This document shows positions 740-31,469 of a stretch of 64,000 bases of DNA, one piece after another. Positions within the stretch are counted from its first letter, which is position 1. Every line of letters begins with the position of its first letter. A program made the position numbers and the translations under genes. Source of the DNA: an uncultured Acidobacteriota bacterium (GTDB lineage: Bacteria; Acidobacteriota; UBA6911); NCBI GenBank assembly GCA_963809485.1, contig CAWEJX010000020.1, forward strand, positions 416,001-480,000, given 5' to 3'. Under the pieces are notes generated by a model. It saw only the letters and a program-made list of their open reading frames with translations. It had not been told where the DNA came from and ran no database searches.

Positions 740-1672
740 TCAGTGTTTTGCGCTCGGGTGAGGGACCGGACCGAGCGTCCTGGCCGCATTTTTCAACAGG
801 GCTCGGATCCAGATGTGCCCGGGATCCTGATCCTGATAGCGGTGCCATTGCAGGCAATGGGTGACTTTCGGAATGGCGAAAGGAGGGCGTATCAGCCTGA
901 GCGGCAGGTGTTGTGCGCAAATCCGCGCCATTCGGCTCATGACCGTGGCGATTCGGCTGGTCCCCACAACCAGGCGGCAGGCGACTTCAAAATCCTGCGT
1001 GACCACCTCGATTTTTCTAGTCTCCCCGTAGCGGGCGGCAAACCATTCCTCAAAAATAGCGGGAGCGTGGCCGAAATGGACCGCAATATGCCCGAGTTCG
1101 AGAAACCGGCTCCGGGAAATCGAGTTTCCAATTAAAGCGTTGTTGCGCCACACCACACAGGTGTGCGTATCCTCGAAGAGCGATTCCTTCGGATGTGCCG
1201 CCAGCGCGTGGACAGCAGGGCGGATGAGGAAATCGACGTCTCCCTTTTCAAGCTTCTGGTCGATATTCTCATCCAAACGCACCAGCTCGAACCGGACTCC
1301 GGGCGCCCGCTGCGCAGCCTCCTGCATCACGCCGGGCATCAATACAGCAGTCACATAGTCGGACACCGCCATACAGAACTTGCGGCTGGAGGCAGCGGGA
1401 TCGAACTCCGCTTTGGAAGCGACCGTGTGCTGGATCTGGACCAGGCAACTGCGCACAGGTTGCACCAGGCTTTCAGCCAATGGAGTCAAGACCATCCTGC
1501 GACCCGCCGGAACCATCAGTTCATTCCCGAAGTATTGCCGAAGGCGAGCGAGAATAATGCTGGTCGCCGGCTGGCTCAAATGGAGCCGTTCCCCGGCGCG
1601 CGTAACACTCTTTTCCGTCAGCAATGCATCCAGCGCAACAAGCAGGCCAGGATCGAATTTGCGAAAGTCCAT
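740..1672 (-). CDS. LysR-family transcriptional regulator, NodD/FdeR-like
   Basis: N-terminal HTH LLVALDALLTEKSVTRAGERLHLSQPA and LARLRQYFGNEL, C-terminal LQWHRYQDQDPGHIW, all resembling the NodD subfamily. Confidence 0.9.
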   Translation of the reverse strand: MDFRKFDPGLLVALDALLTEKSVTRAGERLHLSQPATSIILARLRQYFGNELMVPAGRRMVLTPLAESLVQPVRSCLVQIQHTVASKAEFDPAASSRKFCMAVSDYVTAVLMPGVMQEAAQRAPGVRFELVRLDENIDQKLEKGDVDFLIRPAVHALAAHPKESLFEDTHTCVVWRNNALIGNSISRSRFLELGHIAVHFGHAPAIFEEWFAARYGETRKIEVVTQDFEVACRLVVGTSRIATVMSRMARICAQHLPLRLIRPPFAIPKVTHCLQWHRYQDQDPGHIWIRALLKNAARTLGPVPHPSAKH

Positions 1673-1719
1673 GGCGCCCTCAGGTAGTCGAGCCCCGCGG
1701 GAAAGCGTGGGGTGACAAT

Positions 1720-1775
1720 GTATTTAAAAATCAAATCAGAATATATATTAAACATTCATTTTACAAATAATATCA
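1720..1775 (+). promoter_or_regulatory. AT-rich LysR operator region, nod-box-like
   Basis: AAACATTCATTTTACAAAT (1750-1768) resembles the 3' part of the nod-box consensus AAACAATCRATTTTACCAAT. Lies between the divergent lysR and the phlG-like operon. Confidence 0.5.
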
Positions 1776-1927
1776 ATGCCTGATATTTATGCCATCAGGG
1801 GCGGCAATTTATGTCTGTTTCCTGCCGCCTGAATCGGGAATTTTGGGTTTTGGCAATGGCGAAAATGCCGGCTGTCCAGGTGCATGGCTCTCATGGTAAC
1901 CCTCTGGATAAATCAGGAGCGTGTCTG

Positions 1928-2758
1928 ATGGCGACTCAGAAATCGGTGCCTCTCAAACCGGAAGAACAATCCAGAGCCTGCGCCAAATTTTACCGGGACC
2001 CTGTGCCGCCCGATCCCGCGCATCTGGCGATGATGGATACGCCATGCGATCCCTCAAAGGCTATTTATCCGGAACAGATGAATGAGCTTCTCAAACCGGG
2101 CGCCCTGCAGGTGGAAATCGGATGGTGCAACCTGCCGAACGGAGCGGGATTTATCGCCAACCGGAATATTTACGCAAACATAACCGCTGAGATGATCGAC
2201 TGGTGGTTTGCCTGGCATCCGCTTGAGGATCTGCGCTACCGCGTGTGGTATCCGCCTCAGCATGCCGGAATAGCGTTAAGCCCCGAATCCCGCAGCAGAA
2301 TTCTCGACCCGTCGATACCGGTTCGGGAGAAAAATTGGGGCGTTACCCACCATGTTACCGAGGACTGCGGTTGCGGAATGGAAAATATCGAAATCACATT
2401 CCTCTCGCCAAGGGATTTCGGCTTCGACATAACGCTTTGGAAGGAACCGTTTGTTTCGACTTTCGCAGGCGGTTTCGGCTGGTCCCGCAGGGCGGATGAT
2501 GCTGAACATGCCATCAAAACGCCATCGCTGATGTGCCACATTTTTCGGCAGGTTCCAGGCGGCCTCGAACATCGCACACGGTTCTGGATGGGTTACCGGG
2601 CGTCCCAGGGCAAGCCGGAGCTGGTCCTGCCCCCGGGCATCTCAGTTCCGGCGATTGCGGTTCAGGGGCTCGCAAGGCACAACGTGCTGGAATTCAGCAA
2701 CCTTGGAGCCCTTTTGCCGGAAATCCATGCAGAATTCGGCGGGCAGATGACCGCTTAG
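1928..2758 (+). CDS. DAPG hydrolase / phloretin hydrolase (PhlG family) C-C hydrolase
   Basis: Motifs EIGWCNLPNGAGF, TAEMIDWWFAWH, RYRVWYPPQH, THHVTED, RTRFWMG, HNVLEFSNL. RBS CAGGAG before ATG 1928. Confidence 0.85.
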   Translation: MATQKSVPLKPEEQSRACAKFYRDPVPPDPAHLAMMDTPCDPSKAIYPEQMNELLKPGALQVEIGWCNLPNGAGFIANRNIYANITAEMIDWWFAWHPLEDLRYRVWYPPQHAGIALSPESRSRILDPSIPVREKNWGVTHHVTEDCGCGMENIEITFLSPRDFGFDITLWKEPFVSTFAGGFGWSRRADDAEHAIKTPSLMCHIFRQVPGGLEHRTRFWMGYRASQGKPELVLPPGISVPAIAVQGLARHNVLEFSNLGALLPEIHAEFGGQMTA

Positions 2759-2792
2759 GTGTATACCGTGTTGAAATCAGTTCGGAGGGAGC

Positions 2793-3014
2793 ATGAGTGC
2801 CAACATTGAGATTGATTTGGATGAGTGTACCGGCTGCAAGACCTGCGTCGACGCCTGTTTTGTGGATGTGATGCGATGGGACGAGGAGCAGGAGAGGCCG
2901 ATCGTTGCGTATGAGCGGGATTGCGTTTGGTGTTTTACGTGCGAAATCAATTGCCCGGCCCAATGTATCAACATCATACCCCAAGTGCCCGGACAGACGG
3001 TCAACCCTTACTGA
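2793..3014 (+). CDS. 2x[4Fe-4S] ferredoxin, AprB-like
   Basis: CTGCKTCVDAC and CVWCFTCEINCP motifs, GGAGG RBS, directly upstream of the flavoprotein. Confidence 0.9.
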   Translation: MSANIEIDLDECTGCKTCVDACFVDVMRWDEEQERPIVAYERDCVWCFTCEINCPAQCINIIPQVPGQTVNPY

Positions 3015-3048
3015 ACGCTGGTGTCGCAGAACTTAAGAGGAGTCAAAC

Positions 3049-5298
3049 ATGGGCGAAAAGGCAAAGAACGCAACAATATATGATTCGGACGTGCTCATTA
3101 TCGGCGGCGGATTCGGCGGCCTTGCGGCGGCGATCAGAATCAAAGAGCTTTCGCCGGAAACTAGCGTGCTGCTCGTAGACAAGCAGACGATTGGATGGGG
3201 AGGAAAAGCGAATAAGGGGGCCGGAGTTTTATGGGTTCTTATGCCCGGCGACAATATCGACGCCTTCGTCGATTTTCATGTGAAGAACATCGGAATTTAC
3301 CTGAACGATCAGGATCTGCTGTACGCAATGGCGCGGGAATCCTTCGGGGCAGCTCAGAAACTGGCGGAATGGGGCGTTAAAGTAATGAAAACCCCGGAAG
3401 GGAATCTGGATGCCAGCCCTCTGCCTTTCGGCTGGTCGATGGCGGCAGCAGATCTGGACATGATGCAGCCGCTCAGGGCAAAGGCCTCGAAACTTGGAGT
3501 GAGACTGCTGGACAAAACCCAGGTGGTCGACCTGTTGAAACGGGACGATCGCGTTATCGGTGCGGTCGGCTTCAACCTTCTCGACGGCCGCTTCACTCTC
3601 TTGAACTCAAAAACCACCCTACTGGCGAATGGCGATTGTGATTTTGGAGTCATGCGCATGTGGGCCAATGCCTGCGGAGATGGCATCGCAGCTGCCTACA
3701 ATGCCGGAGCGGAGATGCGGAACGCGGAGTTCGGAAATTTCTACGATGTTGTCAACAAGGGTACGGGCATTCCCATTGTTTTCGGTTTCAACGCACTCTA
3801 TAACGCCCAAGGTGAGAATATAAGCTCCAAATACATTCAAGGCCCGCAGCCGGATATCCCGATTTCCATTATCTTGGGAATGGAGAAGGAGATCATGGAG
3901 GGAAGGGGGCCCATATATTTCGACATGGCTGAGTTCGCCAAAAGATCAGGCGGTGGGGGAATCTTTCAATGGGATAGGCCCCATTCCAAGGCGTTATTCG
4001 GGCGTGAATTTGCAAAAATGCAGAAGTATGGTCCGCCGCAGGCTGCCAGGACCGAGGTTTCTCTCGGGTTCACCGGCGAACTCTCGGCCGTCAAAGTCGA
4101 CCGTGACATGAAGACAACCCTTCCAGGCCTTTGGGCAATCGGCGATACGAGTTACGCGGGTTCCGCATGGGCCGGCGCGGCGGAGGCGCCTCCGGGAAGA
4201 TTGAGAGGCTCCGGATTGATGAATGCCCTGATCGCGGCTTTGATGGCTTCTCCATCTGTGGCCAGGCATGCGAAAGAGGCCCCGGCTTCCCTGCCTGATG
4301 AGCATGAGATAGAGCTTCTGAAAGAGAAATTATTTGCGCCTTTGAACCGGCGCCACGGCTACTCAGCTTCAGAAGCCATACGGAGCATCCAGGAAGTGGT
4401 TGTGCCTGTGAAATACAGCATGCGCCGGAACAAGGAGCGGCTGGAGGAAGCCTTGTCCAAGGTGGCGGCAGTCCAGGAAAAGCTGCCCGAGCTCTATGCA
4501 GAGGATCCGCACGGTCTGGCCAAATGCCATGAAGCTGCGTGCATTGCACTATGCGCCGAAATCGGATTTCGGGCAGCTCTGGCCCGCACTGAAAGCAGGG
4601 GTTGGCACTACAGGGAGGACTATCCTCAGCGGGATGACGAGAACTGGCTCAAGTGGATCATCGTCAAAAAAAGCCAGGATAAAATGGCTGTCACCACCGA
4701 GCCCATTCCTATGGAGCGCTATAAAATCAAGCCCACCCAGACGACGACCGTAACGGACGCTGTCGTGGATCACGACGAGCTTGTCGGCGTTACGCCCGAG
4801 ATGATCGACTGGTGGTGGGTCAATATGGAAAAGGGATATCCCTTGTGGGAGCCCAACGATCACAAATCATTCGTATGGGAAGTGCCGCCGCCCGTTGGCG
4901 GGTACCTTGGCGCCATCCAGATAGCGGAGGAAAAGATGGGGCCGATGCCGGCCATGAAGATCCGTATACGGTGGGACGATCCGGACACCTGTCCCGTTCC
5001 GGGCATTTACGAGCATGCAATCGTGGCAGCCGGGATCAATCCCGAGGGGAAGGTGCAGGCCATGATTCTCCACGAATGGGAGAAGAGCCCCCGCGGGACA
5101 AGGATGCGCTCCACCATGCATTTCCCCGGCCCCGTTCCTTCCGGCTTCGCCGAAATCTGGAAAGCGCACGACAGGGCGGAGGTATCCACGTTCCCAAATT
5201 TCCTGCCCGACCTTTATCGGTTGTGGCAGGCTGTAAAAGACCCGGCAATCAACAGGCAGTGCTCATTGAAGAGAAAGAAGTCCGCCGGACAAAGCTGA
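3049..5298 (+). CDS. FAD-dependent oxidoreductase (AprA/SdhA/NadB superfamily) fused to a C-terminal PhlG-like hydrolase domain
   Basis: GGGFGGLAAA FAD motif, PGLWAIGD, RTESRGWHYREDYP. After about aa 565: GVTPEMIDWWW...YPLWEPNDH...HDRAE, matching the PhlG fold. Confidence 0.85.
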   Translation: MGEKAKNATIYDSDVLIIGGGFGGLAAAIRIKELSPETSVLLVDKQTIGWGGKANKGAGVLWVLMPGDNIDAFVDFHVKNIGIYLNDQDLLYAMARESFGAAQKLAEWGVKVMKTPEGNLDASPLPFGWSMAAADLDMMQPLRAKASKLGVRLLDKTQVVDLLKRDDRVIGAVGFNLLDGRFTLLNSKTTLLANGDCDFGVMRMWANACGDGIAAAYNAGAEMRNAEFGNFYDVVNKGTGIPIVFGFNALYNAQGENISSKYIQGPQPDIPISIILGMEKEIMEGRGPIYFDMAEFAKRSGGGGIFQWDRPHSKALFGREFAKMQKYGPPQAARTEVSLGFTGELSAVKVDRDMKTTLPGLWAIGDTSYAGSAWAGAAEAPPGRLRGSGLMNALIAALMASPSVARHAKEAPASLPDEHEIELLKEKLFAPLNRRHGYSASEAIRSIQEVVVPVKYSMRRNKERLEEALSKVAAVQEKLPELYAEDPHGLAKCHEAACIALCAEIGFRAALARTESRGWHYREDYPQRDDENWLKWIIVKKSQDKMAVTTEPIPMERYKIKPTQTTTVTDAVVDHDELVGVTPEMIDWWWVNMEKGYPLWEPNDHKSFVWEVPPPVGGYLGAIQIAEEKMGPMPAMKIRIRWDDPDTCPVPGIYEHAIVAAGINPEGKVQAMILHEWEKSPRGTRMRSTMHFPGPVPSGFAEIWKAHDRAEVSTFPNFLPDLYRLWQAVKDPAINRQCSLKRKKSAGQS

Positions 5299-5478
5299 GA
5301 CGGTGATGGAGAGTTGCCGAAAGGTAGAGTCATGTCGCCAGTGACCTTTGGATGAAGCGTGGTGACTATTGTCCGCAGAGCAGGAGGCTTTACGCTCGCT
5401 GGCCACTCAAAGGGGCTGATCCCAACCGATAAAGGATAAAACCGGTTTCACGCTTTATAAAAACTATCAAAGCTATTT

Positions 5479-5570
5479 GAACCGCAGAATGTCGAATAAA
5501 GAATGATGAATATCGAAGTTTGGTCCTCGTTTCTGGGGTTCGACATTCGACATTCAATATTCGATATTCA
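5479..5570. repeat. Heptamer-based palindromic intergenic repeat, family A copy 1
   Basis: GAACCGCAGAATGTCGAATAAAGAATGATGAATATCGAAGT ... TTCGACATTCGACATTCAATATTCGATATTC; related copies at about 15338 and 58671. Confidence 0.75.
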
Positions 5571-5662
5571 GTATTCCTCTGGGTTGTCGTCACAAGACCG
5601 GCGATAAAGCATGCTCCGGTATTTGTCAAATTGATGCTGCCTTGCCGGAATCCCTGCTACGT

Positions 5663-6922
5663 CTATCGCGACCGTGCCTGCGAACGGAAGAGCATCGGCG
5701 CCGTGTAATTCAAGTGATTACGCCAAACGCTGAAAACATGGCCGCCGGGGTAATCAGCCCATACGGCGTTGATGCCCTTGTCCTTGAACAGCTTCACCAA
5801 TCGTTTTCCGGGCGGCAGCATTGCTGTCTCCTGCCGGCCGGCGCCAAGGAAGAGAAGACGCAGGTTCTTCTTTGTTTGCTCCGGATTTGCCAGCAACTCC
5901 TTCCACGGAGACTGAGTTTCTATCTCGCCCGGCATTTGCGGCCCGATACCGCCGAATCCCCCGCTGTAGGCCAGAACATAATGAAACAATTCCGGGTGGG
6001 CAAGCCCGATCTGGATGCTTTGAAACGCGCCCATCGACAGGCCGCCAATGGCCCTGTGGTCCGGGTCGCTGTAAACGCGGAAGCCGCTCTCAATCATGGG
6101 AAGGATCTGCTCGAGCAGTTCCTTTGTGAAAAAGGTGAAGTTGAGCATGCCTGCCGGGCCCGGTTGCAGGACAGCCCTGAACGGCCCGACCGATGCACTC
6201 TGTATCGCATGCCCATGCGGCATCACGACGATCATCGGCACGGCCTTGCCCTCCGCGATGAGGTTATCGAGAATGATATTGGCTCGCCCGTTCATCACCC
6301 AGCCGGATTGGGTTTCACCGTTTCCATGCAGGAGGTAATAGACGGGATACTTCTTGTTTGTCCTGTCGTAGTCCGGCGGCGTATACACCCAAAGATAGCG
6401 ATGGACGTCCATCGCCTTAGACTCGTAGAGAATCATGCGGACCTGCCCATGCGGCACCGGACGCGCATCATAGAACGCCGGCGCATCCCCCGGAACTTCC
6501 ACGAAGCTCGAGACGGCTGCGGGCCCCGCCGAGCGATGCATGAGGCTGATGTTGGCGGGATCGGGAAACTCGACGCCTTCTGCGCGAAAGTTGTATATCC
6601 AGATCTCCGGCGGCAGCGGCCCGATCGTGACGCTCCAGACGCCTTCGTCATCTTTCGTCATCGGCTGGGAAGGTTTTCCCTGCAAAACCTCGCCAACAAG
6701 TTCGACTGCCGTTGCTTTGGGAGCGCGCAGCCGGAATGTCACGGTCCGGTCGGGATGAACTTCGGGAGACCGCAGCGTTGGAGGGAGCGGTGCTCTGGGT
6801 GCCTCGGCGGTAGCGGATTGGGAGGGATTCCCGGTTTTCGGGCCTGGCGCCGTCTGAGCAACCAGTAGGGATACAGACAGAATCACCATCAGGGCCAGTG
6901 CAAAAGCGGCTCTAATCCCCAT
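5663..6922 (-). CDS. Secreted esterase (CE1 / enterochelin esterase-like) with N-terminal Ig-like/CBM48-like domain
   Basis: Signal peptide; SPEVHPDRTVTFRLRAPKA; YPVYYLLHG; nucleophile GLSMG; C-terminal GGH. Confidence 0.88.
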   Translation of the reverse strand: MGIRAAFALALMVILSVSLLVAQTAPGPKTGNPSQSATAEAPRAPLPPTLRSPEVHPDRTVTFRLRAPKATAVELVGEVLQGKPSQPMTKDDEGVWSVTIGPLPPEIWIYNFRAEGVEFPDPANISLMHRSAGPAAVSSFVEVPGDAPAFYDARPVPHGQVRMILYESKAMDVHRYLWVYTPPDYDRTNKKYPVYYLLHGNGETQSGWVMNGRANIILDNLIAEGKAVPMIVVMPHGHAIQSASVGPFRAVLQPGPAGMLNFTFFTKELLEQILPMIESGFRVYSDPDHRAIGGLSMGAFQSIQIGLAHPELFHYVLAYSGGFGGIGPQMPGEIETQSPWKELLANPEQTKKNLRLLFLGAGRQETAMLPPGKRLVKLFKDKGINAVWADYPGGHVFSVWRNHLNYTAPMLFRSQARSR

Positions 6923-7195
6923 ATTCGCAGTCCTCCTTCACGAGTCGGTAGAAGCAAATTCTGATTTTGCTTGCCCCGGCGTCGTCAACGCGCAGCATCG
7001 TTTTCCAGTCACGCAAGCAAAGCAGCAACCCATTGTCCGCACACACGGGACACAGTACTTGTGAAGCCGGCTCAACCGGCCTATGGTCCATCCTCTTCCT
7101 GCGGATTTCCCATTGCGGATCCGAGCATAGCATGCAATGCGCTTCCTTGAGAAAAGCCATCAACCGCGAAGTCTCCGGCTTTTCCGGAAGGATGC

Positions 7196-8545
7196 CTATT
7201 TCCGAAATCTGCTCAGATCGAAAGCGTCCGCCATTGCCTGATTGCCCGCGTCATTGGGGTGGATATGGTCGCCGGGATCGAATTCAGGCCGCAGGCGAAC
7301 GGGCCGGGACGGATCCCGGAGGACGGCATCAAAGTCCACGACTGCATCGAAAAGGCCGCTTGTGCGGATCCACTGATTCACGGCCTGCCTTATCTGTTCG
7401 CCACGCTCGGACCATGTCGGGACGCCTTCCTGGGGCGTAACCGTCGCCCCAATCACCCGGATTCCATGGGTATGCGCTCGTTCGATGATCTGTCGATATC
7501 CCGCGATAAGATCCTCGCCCGTAAGCGCGTCGGGACCCTCCGACCGTCCACGTATATTGATGTCATTAATGCCTTCCAGCAGGATAAGCCATTTCACCCC
7601 GGCAATGCTCAGCACATCGCGATCAAAACGCGCAAGCGCACTCAGTCCGGCTCCGTCCCGCAGCACCTGGTTTCCCGATATGCCCAGATTGACAACCGAA
7701 ACGTGTTGAGTTCTTTTGCTGGAATGCAAACGCCGCGCTAGGAGAGCCGGCCATGCGCGGTCCGTATCCAGTGTGGTCGCATATCCGTCGGTGATGGAAT
7801 CCCCCAATGCCACAATTGCGAATGCATCGGCCGGCGCCAGTACATCGATACTGGCCAGCCAAAGATAAGCAAATGTGGTGGCGGGCTCGGGCATGATTTC
7901 CTGTCCGGCAACATTGCCCTTGGACAGGTAGGTGGTATGAAGTCCCAGCCTGTGATTCGTCGGCGCGCCTGTGTCGTGCGGCAGGTATAACGAAACGGCA
8001 AGATCCGTCAGCGGAGCTATCTCCAAATCTATCGGATCGCTGACCGCTAAAACACCCGGGAGCAGTACGCATGAAGGCTTTCCGTTAAATGTAATGGCCC
8101 GGTCTGTTCCGGGAACGATCGCGCCGCCGGCTTTGTGAACCGCGATGTGCGCAGAACCGACCTGTACCAACGGCTTCCCCTGCGAGTTGCTGAGATTCAC
8201 GCGAACCCGCCGGCCGCCCAGGCTCGTGCGGACAATCATCCGCACGGTCTGATCCTGCAGGTTCGAAGGCATATCGAACATGATCGGAGAGCTGTCGCGG
8301 CTCCCGGATTGGCGCACGGTCGCGGACTGCTGCGGAGTTTCCTGTTTTCGGGATGAATCCGGTGATATTGGGGGACCATTCCGATCGGGCCCATCGGGAA
8401 ACCTCACAGGAACCAGTTCCTGAGCTGTCGCCCATGTACAAATCCATCGTTCGCTACTTTTCTGGGTATTGCGGGAATACGAAGTTGCCATCAATGGCAC
8501 AAGGAGCATGGCAACAGCAAGGAGGGGTGTGCGTTTTCGCATCAT
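7196..8545 (-). CDS. Secreted SGNH/GDSL hydrolase
   Basis: GDSITDG, GISGN, EGINDI and DHIHP blocks; signal peptide from MMRKRTP. Confidence 0.88.
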   Translation of the reverse strand: MMRKRTPLLAVAMLLVPLMATSYSRNTQKSSERWICTWATAQELVPVRFPDGPDRNGPPISPDSSRKQETPQQSATVRQSGSRDSSPIMFDMPSNLQDQTVRMIVRTSLGGRRVRVNLSNSQGKPLVQVGSAHIAVHKAGGAIVPGTDRAITFNGKPSCVLLPGVLAVSDPIDLEIAPLTDLAVSLYLPHDTGAPTNHRLGLHTTYLSKGNVAGQEIMPEPATTFAYLWLASIDVLAPADAFAIVALGDSITDGYATTLDTDRAWPALLARRLHSSKRTQHVSVVNLGISGNQVLRDGAGLSALARFDRDVLSIAGVKWLILLEGINDINIRGRSEGPDALTGEDLIAGYRQIIERAHTHGIRVIGATVTPQEGVPTWSERGEQIRQAVNQWIRTSGLFDAVVDFDAVLRDPSRPVRLRPEFDPGDHIHPNDAGNQAMADAFDLSRFRK

Positions 8546-8668
8546 ATGGGATCGAGCCTTTGCCCGGGAACTCGTCAGTGTCGGAGACGGCGGACGGGGA
8601 ATTTTTAGGCCGATGCATGGCGGATTCCTGACCCGCCATGCATCCTCCCGCAATTAAACTAGAATAAA

Positions 8669-11600
8669 CTAGAAATCAAGCGCCATATTCATCTGTATCT
8701 TTCGGGAGCCTTGAGTGGTCGTAATCTGCCCGAAAGTCGGAATGCCAACCATCGTTGACGGGTTTCCCCAGCGCACGATATTGAATGGATTGACAAAATC
8801 AGCGCCCAAACGGAAATTGACCCGTTCTGTGATGGCAATGGCTTTTGAAATCGAGAAAGATTCGGATTTCATCCAGGGTCCCCGGGCCCAGTCCAGATAT
8901 CGGGCAGTATTGCCAAACGAGAATAGGGCAGGGCTCGTAAATGCTTCCGGATTCAAATAGACGTCCGAGTACGGATTCCAGGTGCTGAAATCCGTCTTGG
9001 CATAAACCGGCTTCCCATTGTAATTGGCGTACACCATCGGAATGAAGGAGGAGTATCCGAGCGTACCCGCAAAGGGGTTGATCCCCCAGACTTGCAGCGC
9101 GGCACCCGACTGGTAACGCAGGAACCCGGTGATAGTCCAACCCCCCACCAAGCCGTCGACCAGCCTGGAAGCGGATCCCAGGAAGTGCCTGTTCTTTCCG
9201 AACGGCAGATCGTAGGAGAAATTCAGGCCGAAAATCGCGGCCGGCACCCCGGGATCGATCGCGGTTGGGTTGGACCCGGGGTATTGGCGCGAGCCTTCGG
9301 CGAAATTGGCATAGGTGGTGCTTCCTCCCGAGGAATTGGTGAGGCCCTTCGCCCATGTGAAAAAGCCCAAGGCAGACAAGCCTTTCGAAAAGCGCTTTGT
9401 CGCCTTCAACTGAAGCGAATGGTAGCTCCCCTTGCCGATGGGCAGCAGTGCAACGTCGCCCTGCACAAACGTGTACTGGGGATAAGGCTTCAGCGACTGT
9501 GCAACGGTATTGGCACCCTGCTGTTCGGCAAATCCCGGATAGGGCTCTTTGAATCCCGAAGCCTGTGCCCAGGGCGAATTGATCGGCTGAATGAGCAGAA
9601 AGCCAAGGCCCAGTTTGTCTTCAGGCACGTAATTGAATTGAGAAACGCCGCTGCCGACCGTGAGGTGCGTCGATCGGCTTCCCAGATAGCTCGCCTCTAA
9701 AGAAAAGTTTGGCAGCAGTTCATGTTGAACAACGAGGCTCCAGTTTACGACCTGCGGCAGCCTGGCAGCATCACGGGGGATATAGCTGATTGCCTGGCCG
9801 TTCAGAAATGTGGGATCAATAAGCGGCGGTTTCTTGAAGTTCTGAGGGAAGGGCTCCTCATTCCAGTAAAAGATGGGAGTGAAGCCGTCCGCAGAACTGA
9901 AAGTTGGCGTACCACTGTACCCGAGAGCGCCCGTAGTCAGGAACGGCTGAACGTTTCCGCTGTTGGAGAAGACGATTCCGGCAGATGCGCGGACAATCGT
10001 TTTCGGATTCAGCTGGTATGCAATTCCAAGGCGGGGCCCAAATCCCTTGCGCCAGGGATCCTGGAACTGGCCGCCGATTTTTCCGGTTCCTGTTCCGGCA
10101 TAGGCGAGCGCGCCGGGAAGGTTCCCCGCACCCGCGTTGGGGATGTCGGGTTGAAAGCTCGTCATGTAATCGTTCACCTCATACATGGGCGAGTTGTAGT
10201 CCCACCGCAGACCGTAGGAAACGGTCAGGTTCTTGGTGGCGCGCCATTCATCCTGAGCAAATATCGCGTATTGCCGGAATCGCAGCTGGGTCGCGAGAGA
10301 AATGTAGGCGCTTGCCTGGTTGACTGCGCCGAGCAGGAAAGAAGCAAAAGCGCTCCCGGCATTCTGATCCGCAGTTGTGGCCGTTGAAGAATTCGAGAAT
10401 GTGAAGGATCCGGACTGTCCTCCGAAATGGCGGTCCTCATTGTTCAGCTGAACGGAAAAGCCAAACTTCATGGTATGTTTGCCGCGGATCCAGGAAAGGT
10501 TTTCGTTAAAGCCGAAACGATGTTCCAGCCAGTCTTCGTCATAGGATCGTGCCAAAGGCGGCAGGCGCACCGACTCCACCCGAAAAGCTGATGGAGGGAA
10601 AAGAACCATCGTCGGCCGGAATGCCTTGAATTCCCAAGTTTCTGATCCCAGCCCTGTCCCACAGTCTTGTTGGCTCCGCGGTTATAATAATTATCCGCTG
10701 AGAACGTAAAATGGTTCACCACCGTATTGGTGATGATGTAATCGTGATTCAGGCGCACCTTCCAGCTGTTTGCCAATTGGTCCGTAACCAATGATCGATG
10801 GGGTTGGTTTGCGTTTCCCCCCATACAGGCTGAGGAATACGCCCGACTTCCCAGATAATCCGGTGATTGATTCGTTTGCTGTACATCACCGACAGTTTTT
10901 GTTTGTCGGAAAGGCTGTGGTCTACCTTTATCAGAGGGGAGTACACATTGAGGTAGGGCCATTTGTCATTCGCCCTGGACAGGAAGTTATTTGTTACCCC
11001 CGGCATGTCAGGCGGCGGAAGGTATTCCATAATCTTTTTGGCGGCATCGCTGATGCGCTCGGACGGGATTATGTTGTCTTTAAACGGATCCCGGACGATG
11101 GCTCCCCCTTCACCAATACGTGTGGTTTCCGGATCATATATGGTCACTCCGAGTTCGCTGAAATCCCCAGCCCTCTCTTTGAGCGACGGGATGGTCACCA
11201 GATCTCCCGCTGGCTCCCATCCTGGAATAGAAGAGCCCCAGGCTGCCAAAGAAGAAGGTTTTATCCCTTCCGTTATATACTTTGGGAATTACCACAGGTC
11301 CGCCAAGGGTGAATCCCCCTTCGTTTTGACTAAAGGGCGTCACATCCTTTGCGAAAAATTCCTTTGCGTTCAGCGCGCTGTTCCCAAGGTGGTCGAAGAT
11401 GCTCCCGTGAAGCTGATTGGTGCCCGATTTAATGGTGACATTGGTAAACCAGTTGCCGAATCCTCCGTATTCGGCATTAAATCCGTTTGCCACGACACTG
11501 AATTCACCGACCTGCTCGATGAGAGGGGATATCTCCGAATAACCGCCACGGGCGATGCCCCACTCGCTTGCCGGCCCTCCATCGAGAAAGACCTCCGTAT

Positions 11601-12162
11601 CTCCGGCTGCGCCACCGGTTGCATCGAGGCACGAACGAATCGCCCGACGTGAATCCGGGCAGATTCTGCAAAAGATCCGTAATGGAGCGTTGGTAGACCG
11701 AAACGATCAGGGGCAGCTTCTCCACAGTCGCTGACGGAAGCGCCGGTGGAATTACTGGTTGCCGAGACATCGAGCAGCGGCGCCTCCGCCGTTACCATGG
11801 ATATCTCGGTCACCGTTCCAATCTGAAGCATCGGCATCCACCCGGACCTGTACCTGGGCGCGCACCTCCACCGGCTCCCGGGAAAAGGTGGAAAAGCCTT
11901 CCGCCTGAATAACGACCCTGTAGGTAGCCACGGGAAGATTGGGCGCATTATACAATCCATCGCTGTTTGTGACCAGTTCGTAGGTACTGTTGGTGGCAGT
12001 CTGAATTATTTTTACCTTCGCGCCTGGAATGACTGCGCCCGAGGGGTCCTTGACCAGGCCCTGGATGGTCCCGCGATCGATTTGCGCAATCAGCGGGGTT
12101 ACCGAACAAAGGATTCCTGCTATGCAGAGAAACCACAAAAAATATCGGATACTTCGACGCAT
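8669..12162 (-). CDS. TonB-dependent receptor-like outer-membrane protein with N-terminal carboxypeptidase-regulatory-like domain; multiply frameshifted
   Basis: GTIQGLVKDPSGAVIPGAKV; FNAEYG...TIKSGTNQLHGS; QDEWRATKNLTVSYGLRWDY; terminal RKIQMNMALDF. Homology runs across at least 6 overlapping ORF pieces in different frames. Confidence 0.85.
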
Positions 12163-22921: not shown

Positions 22922-24262
22922 CTAATCCCGTCCGGCGCTGCCATAATCCTTCAGCCGATATTGAAGTGTGCGCAGGCTGATTCCCAGCTCTTCAGCAGCC
23001 GCTTTCCGGTCTCCGTTGTTTCGGGCGAGTGATTCGAGAATTGCGGTCCTTTCAACCTGTGCGAGCAGCCCGGCTTTCCCCGGTTTTGAGCTCCCGGCTT
23101 CGCGCCTTAGCGGCAAATCATCGATTTCAATCACTCCGGGCTGCGAGACAATCATGGCGCGTTCGATCGCGTTCGCCAGTTCCCGGGCGTTCCCCGGCCA
23201 ATCGTGGCTAAGCAGCAATTCCAAGGCTTCCTGGCTTATGGCGGGTTTCAGTTTCCCCATACGTGCCGAAATCCTCATGAGGAACGATTCCGCCAGTGGA
23301 AGGATATCGTCCCGCCGCTCGCGCAAAGGGGGCAAGGGAATAGGAAAGACGTTGAGCCTATAGAACAGATCTTCGCGGAAGGACTTGTTCGCAATGGATT
23401 GATGGAGATCCTTGTTTGTTGCTGCAATCACGCGTACATCCACCGTAATAGTCCGTTCCCCCCCGATGCGTTCGAACTGCTGCTCCTGGAGTACGCGCAA
23501 AAGCTTGGCCTGTAAACCGGCTCCCATCTCGGCAATTTCATCCAGGAAAAGAGTCCCTCCATCCGCCAGCTCGAAACGGCCGCGCCGGTTTTGAGTGGCT
23601 CCGGTAAAAGATCCTTTTTCATGGCCGAAAAGCTCGGATTCAAGCAGTGTTTCGGGAATTGCGGCGCAATTGACTGCAACGAAAGCATGCCCGCTGCGCG
23701 GACTCCGCCGATGAATGAATCGGGCTACTATTTCCTTGCCGCTTCCGGATTCGCCTGTCAGCAGGACCGTCGTGGGCTGCGCCGCCACCTGATTGGCAAG
23801 CTGGAAGACCCGTTTCATGCTCTCGCTCTCCGCAATCACATCCTGTGGGAGCGCAGCGTCCGTCTCTTCTTGATACAACTGACTTCGGTCACGCATCGTC
23901 CGACCGCGCAGAATTCTGCCCACAACCAGCCGCAGTTCTTCGGGACTTTTCAGGGGCTTTGTAAGATATTCCTCGGCGCCGAGCTTGATCGCCTCCACTG
24001 CCGTCTCGATAGAACCATAGGCCGTGAGCACAATAATTGGCGTCTCCGGCGATTTTTCCTGCATCCAGCGGATCAATTCAATACCGCTCATACCGGGCAT
24101 GCGTTCATCTGTTATTACCAGGCTGAAGCTTCGGTGCGACAGCAACTGAGAGGCTTCCATGCCGTTTGCAGCGGTCACAACCTCATAGTCCTTCGCAAGA
24201 GATCCGCTTAGGAACTGGCGTTGACCGGGCTCATCATCTACCGCGAGAATGCTGTATTTCAT
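22922..24262 (-). CDS. Sigma54-dependent response regulator (NtrC/ZraR/AtoC family)
   Basis: Receiver VDDE...TDERMP; GESGSGKE; ESELFGHEKGSFTGA; FLDEI; Fis HTH. Confidence 0.93.
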   Translation of the reverse strand: MKYSILAVDDEPGQRQFLSGSLAKDYEVVTAANGMEASQLLSHRSFSLVITDERMPGMSGIELIRWMQEKSPETPIIVLTAYGSIETAVEAIKLGAEEYLTKPLKSPEELRLVVGRILRGRTMRDRSQLYQEETDAALPQDVIAESESMKRVFQLANQVAAQPTTVLLTGESGSGKEIVARFIHRRSPRSGHAFVAVNCAAIPETLLESELFGHEKGSFTGATQNRRGRFELADGGTLFLDEIAEMGAGLQAKLLRVLQEQQFERIGGERTITVDVRVIAATNKDLHQSIANKSFREDLFYRLNVFPIPLPPLRERRDDILPLAESFLMRISARMGKLKPAISQEALELLLSHDWPGNARELANAIERAMIVSQPGVIEIDDLPLRREAGSSKPGKAGLLAQVERTAILESLARNNGDRKAAAEELGISLRTLQYRLKDYGSAGRD

Positions 24263-24313
24263 TGCTTCGCCTATAAAGAAACTGAAAATCCCGAAAGCGG
24301 GATCGATCGGCTG

Positions 24314-25603
24314 TCAGGCCATCGGGATTATGATGGAACAACGCGCTCCCCCTTGAGGCAGGTTTTCCAGATTCAACCTGCCGCCGAGGCTTTCGACAAT
24401 CTGTTTTGATACCGCGAGTCCCAATCCTGTCCCGCGCACTTTGGTTGTCACGAACGGCTGGAACAGTTCGTCCGAGGTTTTTGAACCCAGTCCCGCACCG
24501 GCATCATCGACTTGAATGATCAGCAACTTGTCATCAGCCTTGCGCACTGCAGTCAAACCAACAATCCCGTTGGCCGGACTGGCATCGATCGCGTTCATAA
24601 GCACATTCAGGAGGATCTGGCGAAGGCCCGCGGGATCGGATCGCACATTAAGTGGATTGGCATTCAGAGACAGTTCAAGGGATGTGCTGGATGCCTCCAA
24701 TCGGGATTGCAGCATAGTTTTGAGGTCCGACAGTAATTCCGCCAGGTTGAATTCGCTGACCTGGGGCTCTTTCTTTCGCGCGAAACCCAGCAAATCGGTC
24801 ACCAGTTTCTCCAGGCGCTCCGCTTCGTTCACCACGGTTCGCAGCTGCCTTTGGGCGGAATGGTTCACAGGCAGTTCTTCCTGGGCCAGCTGAGTCAATC
24901 CCTTCATCGCGCCCAGAGGGTTCCGGATTTCATGTGCCAAGGATGCAGCCATGGTCCCCAGGGCCTTCAACTGAACCTCCGCCGCCTCATGAGCCTTCAA
25001 TTCCATAAAGCGGCTCAGCATGCGCATGAGATAGATTGAAAGAACGACGAGCGCCACAATTGCCAGTCCCGAGACCGCGAGCTGTATGTAGGCCATCCGT
25101 CGTATGAAATCTGCATCTGCCGAATAAAGGCCCATGCGTATGCGCCAGCCGGTTGTTGTGTGACCGGTTTCGCCGCGGAGGTTGCGAGGAGGCGGCAGCG
25201 CCTCTTCGAAATAAAATATCCCGCTCGCTTTAGTCCCTGCTGATTCCGGAGATGCCGTGGTCGCTCTGCCCACCCTTGCAAGAAAATTGCCGTCCTGATC
25301 CACAAGGGCCAGAAAAGCCGCAGAAGCCGAATAGGTTTCGTGGTTGGCTTCCAGAACGGACTGCCAGTATGCGGGATTATTCCGTCTCCCCGGCCCGCGC
25401 ACCTGAGCCTCAATCGCAGAGGCAATCTCGTGTCCCCGCTGGGAGAGATAGGAGGCTCGAAGGCGGGAAAGCGTCGCCAATGTGAAAAGCGCGCTTGTCA
25501 GAAGCCCGAGGCACAAGGCACAAACCACAATAACAATCAGCCGGCGCGGGGCCGAATTGATCGTATTGTATCTGCTAATGGAAGGTGAGGCCGTCATGAG
25601 CAC
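24314..25603 (-). CDS. Membrane sensor histidine kinase
   Basis: Two TM segments; LAHEIRNPL; NVLMNAIDA; DDAGAG; PFVTTK-GTGLGL. Confidence 0.92.
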   Translation of the reverse strand: MLMTASPSISRYNTINSAPRRLIVIVVCALCLGLLTSALFTLATLSRLRASYLSQRGHEIASAIEAQVRGPGRRNNPAYWQSVLEANHETYSASAAFLALVDQDGNFLARVGRATTASPESAGTKASGIFYFEEALPPPRNLRGETGHTTTGWRIRMGLYSADADFIRRMAYIQLAVSGLAIVALVVLSIYLMRMLSRFMELKAHEAAEVQLKALGTMAASLAHEIRNPLGAMKGLTQLAQEELPVNHSAQRQLRTVVNEAERLEKLVTDLLGFARKKEPQVSEFNLAELLSDLKTMLQSRLEASSTSLELSLNANPLNVRSDPAGLRQILLNVLMNAIDASPANGIVGLTAVRKADDKLLIIQVDDAGAGLGSKTSDELFQPFVTTKVRGTGLGLAVSKQIVESLGGRLNLENLPQGGARCSIIIPMA

Positions 25604-27352: not shown

Positions 27353-29542
27353 ATGCAAGCCTATTCTCGAAGGAAATTCCTGAAAATCTCAGGCGCCGTC
27401 GTAGGCGGTGCAGCCGTTACCGCAACTAAAAGGGTGCTGGCCGGCAAGGAGATCATCTCCGGATCCGGCATCCAGATGATTCCTACTTTCTGTGATATCT
27501 GTTTCTGGAAGTGCGGCGCTATCGCCTATGTCAAAGATGGAGAGCTGTGGAAGGTAGAGGGTAATCCGCTGGATCCTCTCAGCCGGGGACGGCTGTGCCC
27601 GAGAGGCACAGGAGGCATTGGCGCCCATTTCGATCCTGACCGTTTACGGGCTCCTCTCATGCGCAGGCGCAAGCGCGGTGACGAAGAGTGGACTGCAGTT
27701 ACATGGGACGAAGCCCTCAACTCCGTTGCGGAGAAGATGCAGAAGATAAAGGCTGAATATGGGCCGGAAGCCCTTGCTCTTTTCTCCCATGGCATCGGCG
27801 GGACTTTTCTCAGACACGCATTGAAGGCCTATGGCGTGATAAACATCGCCGCCCCATCCTTTGCACAGTGCAGAGGACCGCGAGATGTCGGATTCAAGCT
27901 TACCTTTGGAGAAGACGTAAGCTCGCCGGAAAGAACCGATATCCGTAACGCAGACTGCCTTGTGCTCATCGGGTCTCACCTGGGCGAGAACATGCACAAC
28001 ACGCAGGTGCAGGAATTTGCAGAAGCGGTCGGCAGGGGCGCCAGCATCATTGTTGCAGATCCCCGATTCTCTGTAGCCGCGGGGAAAGCGAAGTTTTATC
28101 TCCCGATACGGCCGGGGACCGATCTTGCTCTCCTGCTGGCATGGATGCAAGTACTGGTGGCCGAAAACCTTTACGACAAAGAATATGTCGCGAAGCATGG
28201 CTTTGGCTTCGAGCAGTTTGCCGCATCCGTTGCATCGTGCACACCCGAATGGGCTTATCCGGAAACAGGCATTGAGCCGGAATTGATCCGCTCAACCGCA
28301 CGGGAGATGGCCCGGTGCAAACCTGCCACGCTGGTGCATCCGGGCCGCCATGTCACATGGTACGGGGATGATGCTCAACGCAGCCGCGCCATAGCTCTGT
28401 TGAACGCCTTGCTGGGCAGTTGGGGGCGCAAAGGCGGATTTTATTACCCGGTCAGCATGGACGTTCCCGGTTACGCCTATCCGGAATATCCGAAAGCGCA
28501 AAAGGACAAGGCCGATAATCCCGGGGGGAAATATCCTTTCGCCGACGAGTCAATCACCACCGGAATCCGCGAAGCGACCCGGTCTGGAAAACCCTATACA
28601 ATCAAGGGATGGTTCGTCTACGCAACAAACCTTATGGAGGCGCTGCCGAATGCGCAGGAAACCATACAGGCGATGCAGAACCTGGACCTGATGGTGGTCG
28701 TGGATGTGATCCCCAGTGAAATTGCCGGCTGGGCCGACGTGGTTTTGCCGGAATCCGTTTATCTCGAACGGCACGATGATCTGAATGTCGAATGGTTTCG
28801 CGAACCTTTTGTCGCTCTGCGCCAGCCTGTGGTCCATTCTCCTCATGATCAGAAACCCAACTGGTGGATCGCGCGAACGCTGGCGAACAAGCTGGGACTC
28901 GGGAACTATTTCCCTTGGAAAGACATCGAGGAATATCTCGATCACAGGCTTTCAGCCGCAGGACTGAGCTTCGATGAGCTGAAGAAGAAAGGCATCATCC
29001 GCGGCGCTAAGCAACCCGTTTATTTTGACGAGGGCGTTCCGGACCACTTTTCCACCCCATCAGGGAAAATCGAGTTCTATTCCCTGCAGCTCGAGAAGGC
29101 TGGTATGGCTCCGGTACCGCAATACAAGCGTCCCGCGGATGGCCCGTCAGGGTATCTCCGGTTGCTTTACGGCCGCGCCCCTGTTCACTCTTTCAGCCGG
29201 ACTCAGTCCAATCCGATTCTGTCGGATGCAATGAGCGAAAATGCAGTTTGGGTACACCCGCAAGTCGCCAGGAGGCATGGAATTCAAAACGGAGTTCGCG
29301 TTCGTTTGAAAAACCAGGATGGCGTCCTCAGCAATCGTGTGCTCGTAAGAGTCACGGAGTGTATCCGGCCCGATTGCGTTTACCTGGTCCATGGATTTGG
29401 GCACACGGCCAAGGGCCTCAGGCATGCTTTCGGCAAAGGGGCGAGCGACGCCCAGTTGATCACCCGATACGCGACGGATCCTCTGATGGGAGGGACCGGA
29501 ATGAATGTCAATTTCGTAACCTTCGAGATCGAGGAGGTGTAA
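27353..29542 (+). CDS. psrA: Molybdopterin oxidoreductase catalytic subunit, polysulfide/thiosulfate reductase (PsrA/PhsA-like)
   Basis: Tat SRRKFLK; CDICFWKC...LCPRG Fe-S motif; FAQCRGP (likely Mo-ligand Cys); TPSGKIEFYS; VHGFGH. Confidence 0.85.
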   Translation: MQAYSRRKFLKISGAVVGGAAVTATKRVLAGKEIISGSGIQMIPTFCDICFWKCGAIAYVKDGELWKVEGNPLDPLSRGRLCPRGTGGIGAHFDPDRLRAPLMRRRKRGDEEWTAVTWDEALNSVAEKMQKIKAEYGPEALALFSHGIGGTFLRHALKAYGVINIAAPSFAQCRGPRDVGFKLTFGEDVSSPERTDIRNADCLVLIGSHLGENMHNTQVQEFAEAVGRGASIIVADPRFSVAAGKAKFYLPIRPGTDLALLLAWMQVLVAENLYDKEYVAKHGFGFEQFAASVASCTPEWAYPETGIEPELIRSTAREMARCKPATLVHPGRHVTWYGDDAQRSRAIALLNALLGSWGRKGGFYYPVSMDVPGYAYPEYPKAQKDKADNPGGKYPFADESITTGIREATRSGKPYTIKGWFVYATNLMEALPNAQETIQAMQNLDLMVVVDVIPSEIAGWADVVLPESVYLERHDDLNVEWFREPFVALRQPVVHSPHDQKPNWWIARTLANKLGLGNYFPWKDIEEYLDHRLSAAGLSFDELKKKGIIRGAKQPVYFDEGVPDHFSTPSGKIEFYSLQLEKAGMAPVPQYKRPADGPSGYLRLLYGRAPVHSFSRTQSNPILSDAMSENAVWVHPQVARRHGIQNGVRVRLKNQDGVLSNRVLVRVTECIRPDCVYLVHGFGHTAKGLRHAFGKGASDAQLITRYATDPLMGGTGMNVNFVTFEIEEV

Positions 29543-29544
29543 CC

Positions 29545-30084: not shown

Positions 30085-30090
30085 GAGTCT

Positions 30091-30482: not shown

Positions 30483-30505
30483 ACCAAATCCCGGAGTAAC
30501 GCCCT

Positions 30506-31465: not shown

Positions 31466-31469
31466 GGAG

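Follow-up and report, generated by a model that had tools for sequence, protein, structure and literature searches.

PhlG-type enzymes are described, in the sections of PMC8003664 used here, as carrying out the Zn-dependent C–C hydrolysis of acylphloroglucinols by means of a Bet v1-like domain. In the anaerobic flavonoid route, as presented in the available parts of PMC8084988 and bioRxiv 10.1101/2024.10.22.619724, FCR or an enoate reductase stands directly before phloretin hydrolase, and PGR follows. The anaerobic phloroglucinol pathway, according to the consulted portion of PMC10470551, comprises the short-chain dehydrogenase/reductase (SDR) PGR, the 'cyclase'-family ring hydrolase DPGC, a 3-hydroxyacyl-CoA-dehydrogenase-like protein, the BKACE lyase TAL and CoA transferases. 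Here we analyse a stretch of 64,000 nucleotides from an uncultured Acidobacteriota bacterium of soil or wetland (lineage UBA6911; contig CAWEJX010000020.1, positions 416,001 to 480,000), hereafter the window. It contains a gene that joins a flavin adenine dinucleotide (FAD) flavoprotein, related to AprA and to 3'-phosphoadenosine 5'-phosphosulfate (PAPS) reductase, to a truncated PhlG-like domain. Together with a 2x[4Fe-4S] ferredoxin, the FAD protein and the PhlG-like Bet v1 domain make up a conserved trio, and this module most likely helps in the anaerobic breakdown of plant polyphenols.

The fusion gene is a 749-aa open frame at 3049-5298 on the plus strand, without internal stop, whose residues match those quoted in an earlier sequence-only reading of this DNA. 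That reading had proposed the fusion of an AprA/SdhA-family flavoprotein with a PhlG-like domain, joined by a TQTTTVT linker that leads into a domain of about 180 aa. The open frame and a Pfam domain search bore out both the fusion and the layout, which is as follows:

3049..4734, plus strand: AprA/PAPS-reductase-like FAD flavoprotein domain (residues 1-562 of the fusion)
4735..4755, plus strand: TQTTTVT linker (residues 563-569)
4756..5298, plus strand: truncated PhlG-like domain of Bet v1 fold (residues 570-749, about 180 aa)
Residues 14-227 of the fusion: Pfam FAD_binding_2, 75.4 bits
Residues 455-565 of the fusion: Pfam Succ_DH_flav_C, 81.3 bits
Residues 575-689 of the fusion: Pfam DAPG_hydrolase (PF18089), 26.2 bits (gathering cut-off 22.7 bits), E 6.9e-6, profile positions 35-166 of 223

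The flavoprotein had also been said to end naturally near ...YKIKP, and the unfused flavoproteins encoded in loci where the parts are separate genes (split loci) do terminate there, at the consensus ...YKIKPx. The start of the stand-alone short PhlG-like proteins lies 11 residues before the alignable start of the fused domain. Since both the ends of the unfused flavoproteins and the starts of the short proteins match, the domain boundary is exact and the relation is of the Rosetta-stone type. The linker has a pLDDT below 50 at residues 565-568 of the full-length model, varies in sequence among the fused homologues, and is 40 residues longer in two of them (P0094 and P0095).

A scan of one genome per species returned 57 loci, which were classed as 24 fused, 21 split, 6 flavoprotein-only and 3 other, these 54 containing the flavoprotein; since the loci are mostly contigs of metagenome-assembled genomes (MAGs), some of them short, all counts of neighbouring genes are to be read as minima. 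It is almost inconceivable that this frame arose through a frameshift, a missed stop codon or a chimeric assembly joining two genes. The same in-frame fusion occurs in 24 loci assembled independently and, within the window's own order, 26 of 29 further genomes from its genus have it too, the relatives not being independent observations of each other. Contigs of relatives from three metagenome runs span nucleotides 4700-4800 with 0 gaps, and no indel is listed at 4354-5400 in the contigs of relatives aligned to the window. The contigs aligned over the junction are short contigs of relatives and not reads of the window strain. No sequencing run contains more than 0.23 of the words sampled from this DNA, and no RNA run is listed as containing them. 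The C-terminal domain is moreover the best-conserved stretch of the whole fusion protein in the homologue alignment and is under strong purifying selection, which also argues against an artefact. An assembly artefact was thus rejected on the basis of the 24 fused loci, the congeneric genomes and the gap-free bridging contigs.

The extent of the fused family was consistent between searches. Eighty-nine of the best 120 homologous clusters are 742-789 aa long, with a query coverage of 96% or more; a precomputed PF18089 match is attached to 81 of these 89 (hand count), and P0059, P0066 and P0083, which are unflagged for PF18089, also contain the domain when aligned. At E <= 1e-50 the fusion gene was found in 0 of 21 genomes from ten other genera of the same family, so among the genomes scanned in the family the fusion of two of the three parts is confined to one genus. 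In a quick midpoint-rooted tree, a single branch (SH-aLRT 99) set the 25 fused flavoprotein domains apart from the other sequences, and just outside it lie the long-linker fusions P0094/P0095 (787-789 aa) and two proteins of about 560 aa.

Two further observations concern the junction region. In L027, a fused locus from a related MAG, the fusion and LysR genes match only as several overlapping, frame-shifted pieces, which probably reflects a long-read assembly with many errors and not decay of the gene. Four metagenome runs show, in a 90-bp bin at 4793-4883, a summed contig depth 4 to 10 times as high as in the bins next to it, and loose contig ends at 4801 resemble the N-terminus of short PhlG-like genes that stand alone; because the GVTPEMIDWWWVNMEKGY-coding stretch is so conserved, it is matched at 88% identity or more by contigs of other organisms.

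The C-terminal domain was modelled with AlphaFold2 on 53 diverse relatives, with high confidence (pLDDT 95.8, pTM 0.91). In a Foldseek comparison of this model with the PDB, ranks 1-5 were occupied by 5xe5, 5xey and 3hwp (E 9.5e-9 to 9.4e-7): the phloretin hydrolase structures 5xe5/5xey at 9.5e-9 to 9.2e-8, with TMq 0.64-0.69, and PhlG (3hwp) at 9.4e-7. The next matches were Bet v1/PR-10 proteins, polyketide aromatase/cyclases (ARO/CYC) and abscisic acid (ABA) receptors. The model and its top matches are thus in agreement with the PhlG/Bet v1-like fold proposed earlier. By sequence, the isolated domain (P0122, residues 567-749) aligns with just two short stretches of 5xe5, GVTPEM..WW...W.P..H and HD..E...FLPD.Y, and with one stretch of the full-length PhlG-like paralogue encoded upstream in the window; comparison of the short family with relatives of 250-290 aa by hhalign confirmed homology (E 2.9e-48).

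The motifs of the fused domain had been taken to mirror the metal site of that upstream protein. WEPNDH, with H605, aligns directly with WxPxxH of 5xe5 and with the upstream protein, and HDRAE (H707, E711) aligns with HxxxE of 5xe5. At AEE (E627/E628) hhalign pairs the family consensus Glu, with the upstream protein's own row misaligned around HHVTED, and the proposed pairing of AEE with VTED is a putative one. We take the Zn site of PhlG to consist of two His and two Glu, and the candidate ligands in the fused domain are the following:

4861-4863, plus strand: H605 (His in 52 of 53 family sequences)
4930-4932, plus strand: E628 (Glu in 33 of 53, Gln in 18 of 53)
5167-5169, plus strand: H707 (His in 51 of 53)
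5179-5181, plus strand: E711 (Glu in 51 of 53)

Other conserved residues of the domain are H675 (51/53) and W588 (53/53).

The full-length PhlG architecture consists of an N-terminal domain plus a catalytic domain of about 220 residues (about 275-300 aa in all), and the fused domain lacks it: both this domain and its stand-alone orthologues begin at about profile position 35, without the N-terminal domain of PhlG/Phy. The stand-alone short orthologues score 50-59 bits against PF18089, over profile positions of about 35-223. An exhaustive profile search of 1.84 billion cluster representatives gave only 341 members of this short family at E <= 1e-3, 165 of them at E <= 1e-10; among the 150 matches listed, most are proteins of about 200-220 aa or shorter fragments, and one (P0040, 749 aa) is of the fused type. 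A few proteins of 378-427 aa carry the short PhlG-like domain C-terminally, in P0153 (378 aa) behind a SnoaL_4 (polyketide-cyclase-like) domain, and locus L052 has a separate SnoaL_4 gene (10973-11563) downstream of its flavoprotein gene.

Such a truncated domain could instead be a non-catalytic subunit of Bet v1/START type that captures a hydrophobic phenolic for the flavoprotein, the C–C hydrolysis being carried out elsewhere, by the full-length PhlG-like protein here and by other genome-encoded enzymes in the split lineages. The missing N-terminal domain and the restriction to profile positions 35-223 would fit this idea, as would the non-enzymatic Bet v1/PR-10 binders and ABA receptors that follow PhlG/Phy among the structural matches, the Gln found at the fourth ligand position in 18/53 members, and the complete hydrolase retained next door in 22/24 fused loci. 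However, His, His and Glu occupy the PhlG metal-site positions in 51-52 of 53 diverse members, which would not be expected of a mere pocket, the split loci have no full-length PhlG-like gene within about 8 kb, and in locus L043 the short gene follows DPGC-like cyclase and TAL-like BKACE genes on the same strand. We consider a purely ligand-binding role improbable and retain a putative hydrolase function for the short domain.

The flavoprotein domain has its best PDB match in the alpha subunit of M. thermolithotrophicus PAPS reductase (8a8o), both by sequence (7.5e-31, phmmer) and by fold (6.5e-34, TMt 0.81, Foldseek with the full-length model), followed by A. fulgidus AprA and then by FrdA/SdhA. 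Every NCBIfam equivalog cut-off was failed by it:

PRK08275: score 192, cut-off 587 (the best of the models)
PRK06854 (NF005331): score 143.3, cut-off 557
aprA TIGR02061: score 92.3, cut-off 641.75
sdhA_frdA_Gneg: score 137, cut-off 567

Alignment to E. coli SdhA (1nek) was used to locate the residues that we take to be involved in FAD attachment, substrate binding and catalysis; their numbers are likewise presumed, and the numbering printed for the 1nek chain reproduces the motifs as we assumed them. The correspondences are:

SdhA His45 (covalent FAD): W50 in the fusion
SdhA H242: Y232
SdhA T254/E255: V244/F245
SdhA R286: I272
SdhA H354: E336
SdhA R399: R384 (Arg in 16 of 37 family members, unconserved)

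The absence of the His used for covalent FAD attachment, already pointed out by the sequence-only reading, was confirmed by the pairing of His45 with W50, and because of this absence FAD is expected to be bound non-covalently. The Arg of 8a8o in the aligned 'MRLY' stretch, presumably an active-site residue homologous to SdhA R286 in AprA and PAPS reductase, pairs with S273, and none of the 37 family members, whether fused, split or other, has an Arg in the column of I272 or S273. The family has conserved residues of its own: R224, N225 and E227 are invariant (37/37), K56 and E344 occur in 36/37, K53 in 34/37, and W50 and E336 in 33/37. On these alignments the flavoprotein forms a separate branch within the AprA/SdhA superfamily, and its active site is its own. 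The family label given earlier (AprA/SdhA) thus holds at the superfamily level and fails at the family level, where all NCBIfam cut-offs are missed and the active-site residues differ. A loop of this domain, GDTSYAGSAWAGAAEAPPG (residues 366-383, window 4144-4197), is an insertion with respect to SdhA in which W374, G376, A377, P381 and P382 are invariant. It is the least confident part of the full-length model (pLDDT <50) and may become ordered only upon binding of ferredoxin, FAD or substrate.

The closeness to 8a8o and AprA, then to FrdA/SdhA, in both sequence and fold, together with a small 2x[4Fe-4S] partner adjoining the gene as AprB adjoins AprA, would be in keeping with a true adenosine 5'-phosphosulfate (APS) reductase, PAPS reductase or fumarate reductase to which the C-terminal domain is a mere accessory. 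This is very improbable, since the NCBIfam cut-offs are missed by wide margins, H242, R286 and H354 are replaced by Y232, I272 and E336, the 8a8o Arg is replaced by S273, and no member of the family has Arg at these columns. Pfam scans of the window ORFs (open reading frames) revealed no other sulfate-reduction gene and no SdhB/C/D-type gene. On the failed cut-offs and the missing active-site residues, an identity as APS, PAPS or fumarate reductase was rejected.

The comparison of fused and split loci defined a module of three parts. In all 21 split loci the order is a short DAPG_hydrolase gene (about 216 aa), a ferredoxin gene (75-92 aa) and a flavoprotein gene (about 565 aa); the split flavoproteins are 45-53% identical to that of the window, and the split ferredoxins are orthologous to its ferredoxin. 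These loci belong to other phyla rich in anaerobes, namely Chloroflexota (Dehalococcoidia, 'Chloroflexia'), Thermodesulfobacteriota (Desulfobacteraceae, Desulfatiglans) and Gaiellales (Actinomycetota). In 54 of 54 loci (24/24 fused, 21/21 split, 6/6 flavoprotein-only and 3/3 other) the flavoprotein gene is immediately preceded by a ferredoxin gene. Since the same three parts occur as separate adjacent genes in every split locus, they constitute a conserved three-component module; and since the short part leads the split arrangement and closes the fused one, the fusion needed a rearrangement and not the mere loss of a stop codon. A full-length PhlG-like gene adjoins 22 of the 24 fused loci, and 0 of the 21 split loci within about 8 kb.

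Variants of this arrangement were also found. L040 has, in this order, a short PhlG-like gene, a gene for a 497-aa FAD_binding_2 protein, Fer4_13 and FMN_red. On contig 8 of the window's own genome, an MFS transporter gene is followed by a short PhlG-like gene and by a gene for a 614-aa FAD_binding_2 protein, with no ferredoxin ORF evident between the latter two. Other neighbours of the module are MarR/TetR regulators and MFS, TRAP or Opp-type ABC transporters. A complex prediction for the split subunits of L052 gave 0.00/0.01 relative to a mark of 0.32, a result that counts neither for nor against binding. A UGSC-family (PF24696) gene adjoins an MFS transporter gene in the window (52168-53844, minus strand), and UGSC-family genes lie within a few kb of short PhlG-like genes in two unrelated loci (L029:13133-14872 and L038:4126-5448); this proximity may be coincidence.

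In the window, the genes at 1811-5298 form one operon under a divergent LysR regulator. Upstream of the fusion gene the following features were found:

740..1672, minus strand: divergent LysR-family regulator (Pfam HTH_1 and LysR_substrate)
1811..2758, plus strand: full-length PhlG/phloretin-hydrolase-like C–C hydrolase (PF18089, 231 bits, profile positions 5-222 of 223; 315 aa as the longest ORF)
2793..3014, plus strand: ferredoxin, 73 aa, 2x[4Fe-4S], the presumed electron-transfer subunit, with the motifs CxxCxxCxxxC and CxxCxxCxxxCP, preceded by GGAGGGAG

The operon picture of the sequence-only reading was right in including a second, full-length PhlG-like hydrolase, and it had overlooked the ferredoxin gene, whose ORF sits within the 290 bp that separate the fusion from the full-length PhlG-like gene. 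Pfam Fer4_2 and Fer4_7 match this ORF, and its eight cluster Cys are invariant in 19 orthologues. Its best PDB matches are polyferredoxin and PsaC, and among the 60 best matches there was no specific likeness to AprB. The product of 1811-2758 has the full-length PhlG architecture, and its closest solved relatives are 5xe5, the M. abscessus phloretin hydrolase (1.4e-33), and PhlG, 3hwp (9.6e-30). As it scores 100.3 bits against the NCBIfam model DHPGHylPhlG (NF047887), whose cut-off is 600, it is a member of the family and not an equivalog of the PhlG that is specific for 2,4-diacetylphloroglucinol (DAPG). The true start of this gene is likely ATG 1928 (M40), because the tblastn matches of relatives begin at residues 27-47. 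A LysR homologue stands beside the operon in 17/24 fused loci, several of the other contigs being cut. A scan of 1500-5800 for promoters and terminators found nothing above shuffled sequences, with 3 promoter-like sites where 2.7 are expected and 8 terminator-like sites where 4.3 +/- 2.2 are expected.

Genes for a secreted protein with CBM48 and esterase domains (419 aa) and for a GDSL lipase/acylhydrolase (485 aa) converge on the operon from 5663-8653 (minus strand). They could release phenolic acids from plant polymers; the CBM48-esterase is kept beside the operon only in the closest relative, L001, and the GDSL lipase is not kept there.

The genes surrounding the module in other genomes connect it with phloroglucinol catabolism. 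Proteins of a cluster on contig 8 of the window's genome, with identities assigned according to the consulted portion of PMC10470551, were used as queries against the 57 loci. A DPGC-like cyclase was present in 9 of the 57 loci, namely in 7 of the 21 split loci, in fused L003 and in L043, mostly with a PGR-like SDR alongside; its identity to the query was 74-76% in five split loci, 42% in L035 and L049, and 98% in L003. A TAL-like BKACE was found in L002, L003 and L043. The entire phloroglucinol cluster of L003 is found immediately upstream of its LysR/PhlG-like/ferredoxin/fusion operon. The window's genome itself contains, on contig 8 (400037-419397; L061, L062), a complete cluster of PGR/DPGC/3HCDH/BKACE/CoA-transferase type, about 10 kb from the paralogous pair of short PhlG-like and 614-aa FAD_binding_2 genes described above:

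Contig 8 cluster, in order: BKACE 404216-405115, two CoA_trans, SDR, Cyclase 406865-407665, 3HCDH, IclR, MFS

Taking these data together, we give about an even chance to the reading in which the module is a reductase coupled to a C–C hydrolase that feeds phloroglucinol catabolism. The flow of electrons, the order of the reactions and the class of substrate in the following scheme are those that we infer. The ferredoxin would hand low-potential electrons to the FAD, and the flavin would reduce an activated C=C bond of a plant polyphenol. The PhlG-like domain would then hydrolyse the C–C bond beside the resulting beta-dicarbonyl or acyl-phenol, in a retro-Claisen or retro-Friedel-Crafts reaction like those of PhlG and phloretin hydrolase. 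In the most likely instance, the module would replace the 'chalcone/flavanone reductase then phloretin hydrolase' steps of anaerobic flavonoid breakdown, and the phloroglucinol released would be consumed by the PGR/DPGC/TAL pathway; a chalcone or dihydrochalcone as the specific substrate is less certain than the general reading. The extra full-length hydrolase, present only in the fused lineage, may handle a second bond or substrate of acyl-phloroglucinol type. The terms 'bifunctional reductase-hydrolase' and 'two hydrolases of different specificity', used earlier for this locus, are reasonable as predictions from domain content.

Several points weigh against this coupled reductase-hydrolase. 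The PF18089 match of the fused domain is only 3.5 bits over the cut-off and covers profile positions 35-166, its fourth candidate ligand, E628, is Gln in 18 of the 53 family members, and its competence as a hydrolase is not assured, because the N-terminal domain and about 30 profile positions are missing. The chemistry of the flavoprotein is unreadable from its relatives, since the substrate-binding and catalytic residues of SdhA are absent at the aligned places. The full-length model of the fusion has pLDDT 84.6 and pTM 0.75, and conserved loops (200-207 and 366-383) are disordered in it; the arrangement of the domains is therefore tentative. A low-potential ferredoxin is not needed for the reduction of chalcones. 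If the short domain is the hydrolase, the flavonoid scheme by itself leaves the second, full-length hydrolase of 22/24 fused loci unaccounted for. As to context, Pfam scans of the window ORFs found no phloroglucinol-pathway gene adjoining the operon, and among the 24 fused loci, many of them on short contigs, an adjacent cyclase occurs only in L003 and a BKACE also in L002.

The ferredoxin and the two hydrolase-type domains of the fused operon would be accounted for by a dearomatising reductase acting with a ring hydrolase. Here the full-length PhlG-like enzyme would first remove the acyl group and free a phenol, ferredoxin and FAD would reduce the ring of this meta-dihydroxy or trihydroxy phenol (as its resorcinol-type keto tautomer) to a cyclic 1,3-dione, and the short domain would open the dione by retro-Claisen hydrolysis. 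This would give separate jobs to both hydrolase-type domains and a use to the dedicated low-potential 2x[4Fe-4S] subunit found in 54/54 flavoprotein loci. TRAP (carboxylate-type) transporter genes flank the module in L032 and would be compatible with resorcylic-acid-like substrates. The biochemical properties of resorcinol reductase are taken here as general background. In the consulted portion of PMC10470551, reductive dearomatisation followed by retro-Claisen ring cleavage is the general mode of anaerobic phenol cleavage and resorcinol reductase is called ferredoxin-dependent; the literature searched, as far as its available sections go, assigns no gene to that enzyme. On the other hand, the known chemistry of the PhlG family is cleavage of the exocyclic acyl-aryl bond and not of the ring, the loci with PGR and DPGC already own a phloroglucinol ring reductase and ring hydrolase, and no link to resorcinol metabolism emerged from the present analyses. 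We judge this reading possible, though on the whole unlikely. It is doubtful that the triad, with its AprA-like FAD reductase and its built-in or operon-linked Bet v1 metallohydrolase, constitutes the ferredoxin-dependent system, as yet without assigned genes, that dearomatises resorcinol-type phenols; were it so, it would represent a new ATP-independent anaerobic ring cleavage, distributed over Acidobacteriota, Chloroflexota, Desulfobacterota and Actinomycetota from soils and sediments without oxygen.

Elsewhere in the window, beyond the two genes that converge on the operon and still on its flank, a TonB-dependent receptor/carboxypeptidase-regulatory-like outer-membrane protein is split over at least five overlapping ORFs in different frames at 8669-12162 on the minus strand, which points to frameshifts, a pseudogene or local assembly errors. 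A Pfam scan also identified a polysulfide/thiosulfate-reductase-like set at 27353-33309 on the plus strand, upstream of which lies a sigma-54 two-component pair (22922-25603):

8669-10609, 10468-10962, 10749-11249, 11134-11493 and 11752-12162, minus strand: ORFs of the TonB receptor
27353-29542, plus strand: molybdopterin oxidoreductase, the first gene of the polysulfide/thiosulfate-reductase-like set, with an unassigned 310-aa ORF
30506-31465, plus strand: NrfD membrane subunit of the same set, with a sulphur-transport protein and a rhodanese

Each part of the module comes from a family already described, and precomputed Pfam annotations already show the combination of domains. In the searched literature on phloretin/DAPG hydrolases and phloroglucinol/resorcinol reductases, in the sections available, there is no description of the fusion or of the three-gene module. 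In public annotations such proteins go by no other names than 'FAD-binding protein' or 'succinate dehydrogenase/fumarate reductase flavoprotein subunit', and metabolic reconstructions relying on such labels would misread them as respiratory enzymes. The anaerobic polyphenol routes known so far depend on a few enzymes of gut Firmicutes. The module is a candidate for an upstream step, missing or alternative, in anaerobic polyphenol breakdown, hosted by uncultured soil and sediment lineages that dominate such habitats (MAGs of Acidobacteriota, Dehalococcoidia, Desulfobacterota and Gaiellales). In anoxic peat and wetland soils, polyphenols are believed to keep carbon locked away, which is the 'enzyme latch' of the consulted parts of PMC10470551 and PMC8084988. 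The fused and split forms together yield the testable prediction of a physical complex, and the AprA/SdhA superfamily would gain a branch whose active site (R224-N225-x-E227, K56, E344, W50) and type of partner are both new.

Compared with the described systems, the module combines familiar parts in a different way. With SdhA/FrdA the flavoprotein shares FAD_binding_2 and Succ_DH_flav_C, the fold (TMt 0.7-0.8) and the C-terminal motif R-T-E-S-R-G-x-H-x-R-x-D-x-P; it differs in the replacement of H45, H242, T254/E255, R286 and H354, in having no SdhB/C/D partners, and in scoring far below every Sdh/Frd cut-off. AprAB (1jnr/2fja) and PAPS reductase alpha/beta (8a8o) contain the closest flavoproteins in sequence and fold, and there too a small 2x[4Fe-4S] subunit adjoins. 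In contrast to them, the present protein fails the cut-offs and lacks the Arg of 8a8o, its 73-aa ferredoxin is generic and unlike AprB, there is no sulfur-metabolism context beside the operon, and a third, PhlG-like component is present.

With PhlG (P. fluorescens, 3hwp) and the phloretin hydrolase Phy (E. ramulus; M. abscessus 5xe5/5xey), the short domain shares PF18089, the Bet v1-like fold and the WxPxxH/HxxxE motifs. Unlike them, the fused domain and its orthologues measure only about 180-220 aa, start at about profile position 35 and bear their own signature, GVTPEMIDWWWVNMEKGY; the fused domain is about 21% identical to 5xe5, and the short domain is partnered with a flavoprotein and a ferredoxin, a partnership undescribed for PhlG/Phy. 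The anaerobic flavonoid degraders (Eubacterium ramulus, Flavonifractor, Holophaga), as presented in the consulted parts of PMC10470551, PMC8084988 and bioRxiv 10.1101/2024.10.22.619724, follow the same logic of reduction, C–C hydrolysis and phloroglucinol reductase, and the module shares with their systems the neighbourhood of phloroglucinol-pathway genes. Their flavanone/flavanonol-cleaving or enoate reductases are, in those same parts, separate NADH-dependent proteins, whereas here an AprA-like FAD protein with a ferredoxin is fused or operon-linked to the hydrolase-type domain. By analogy, we infer that the module would be a functional, non-homologous counterpart of flavonoid reductase plus phloretin hydrolase.

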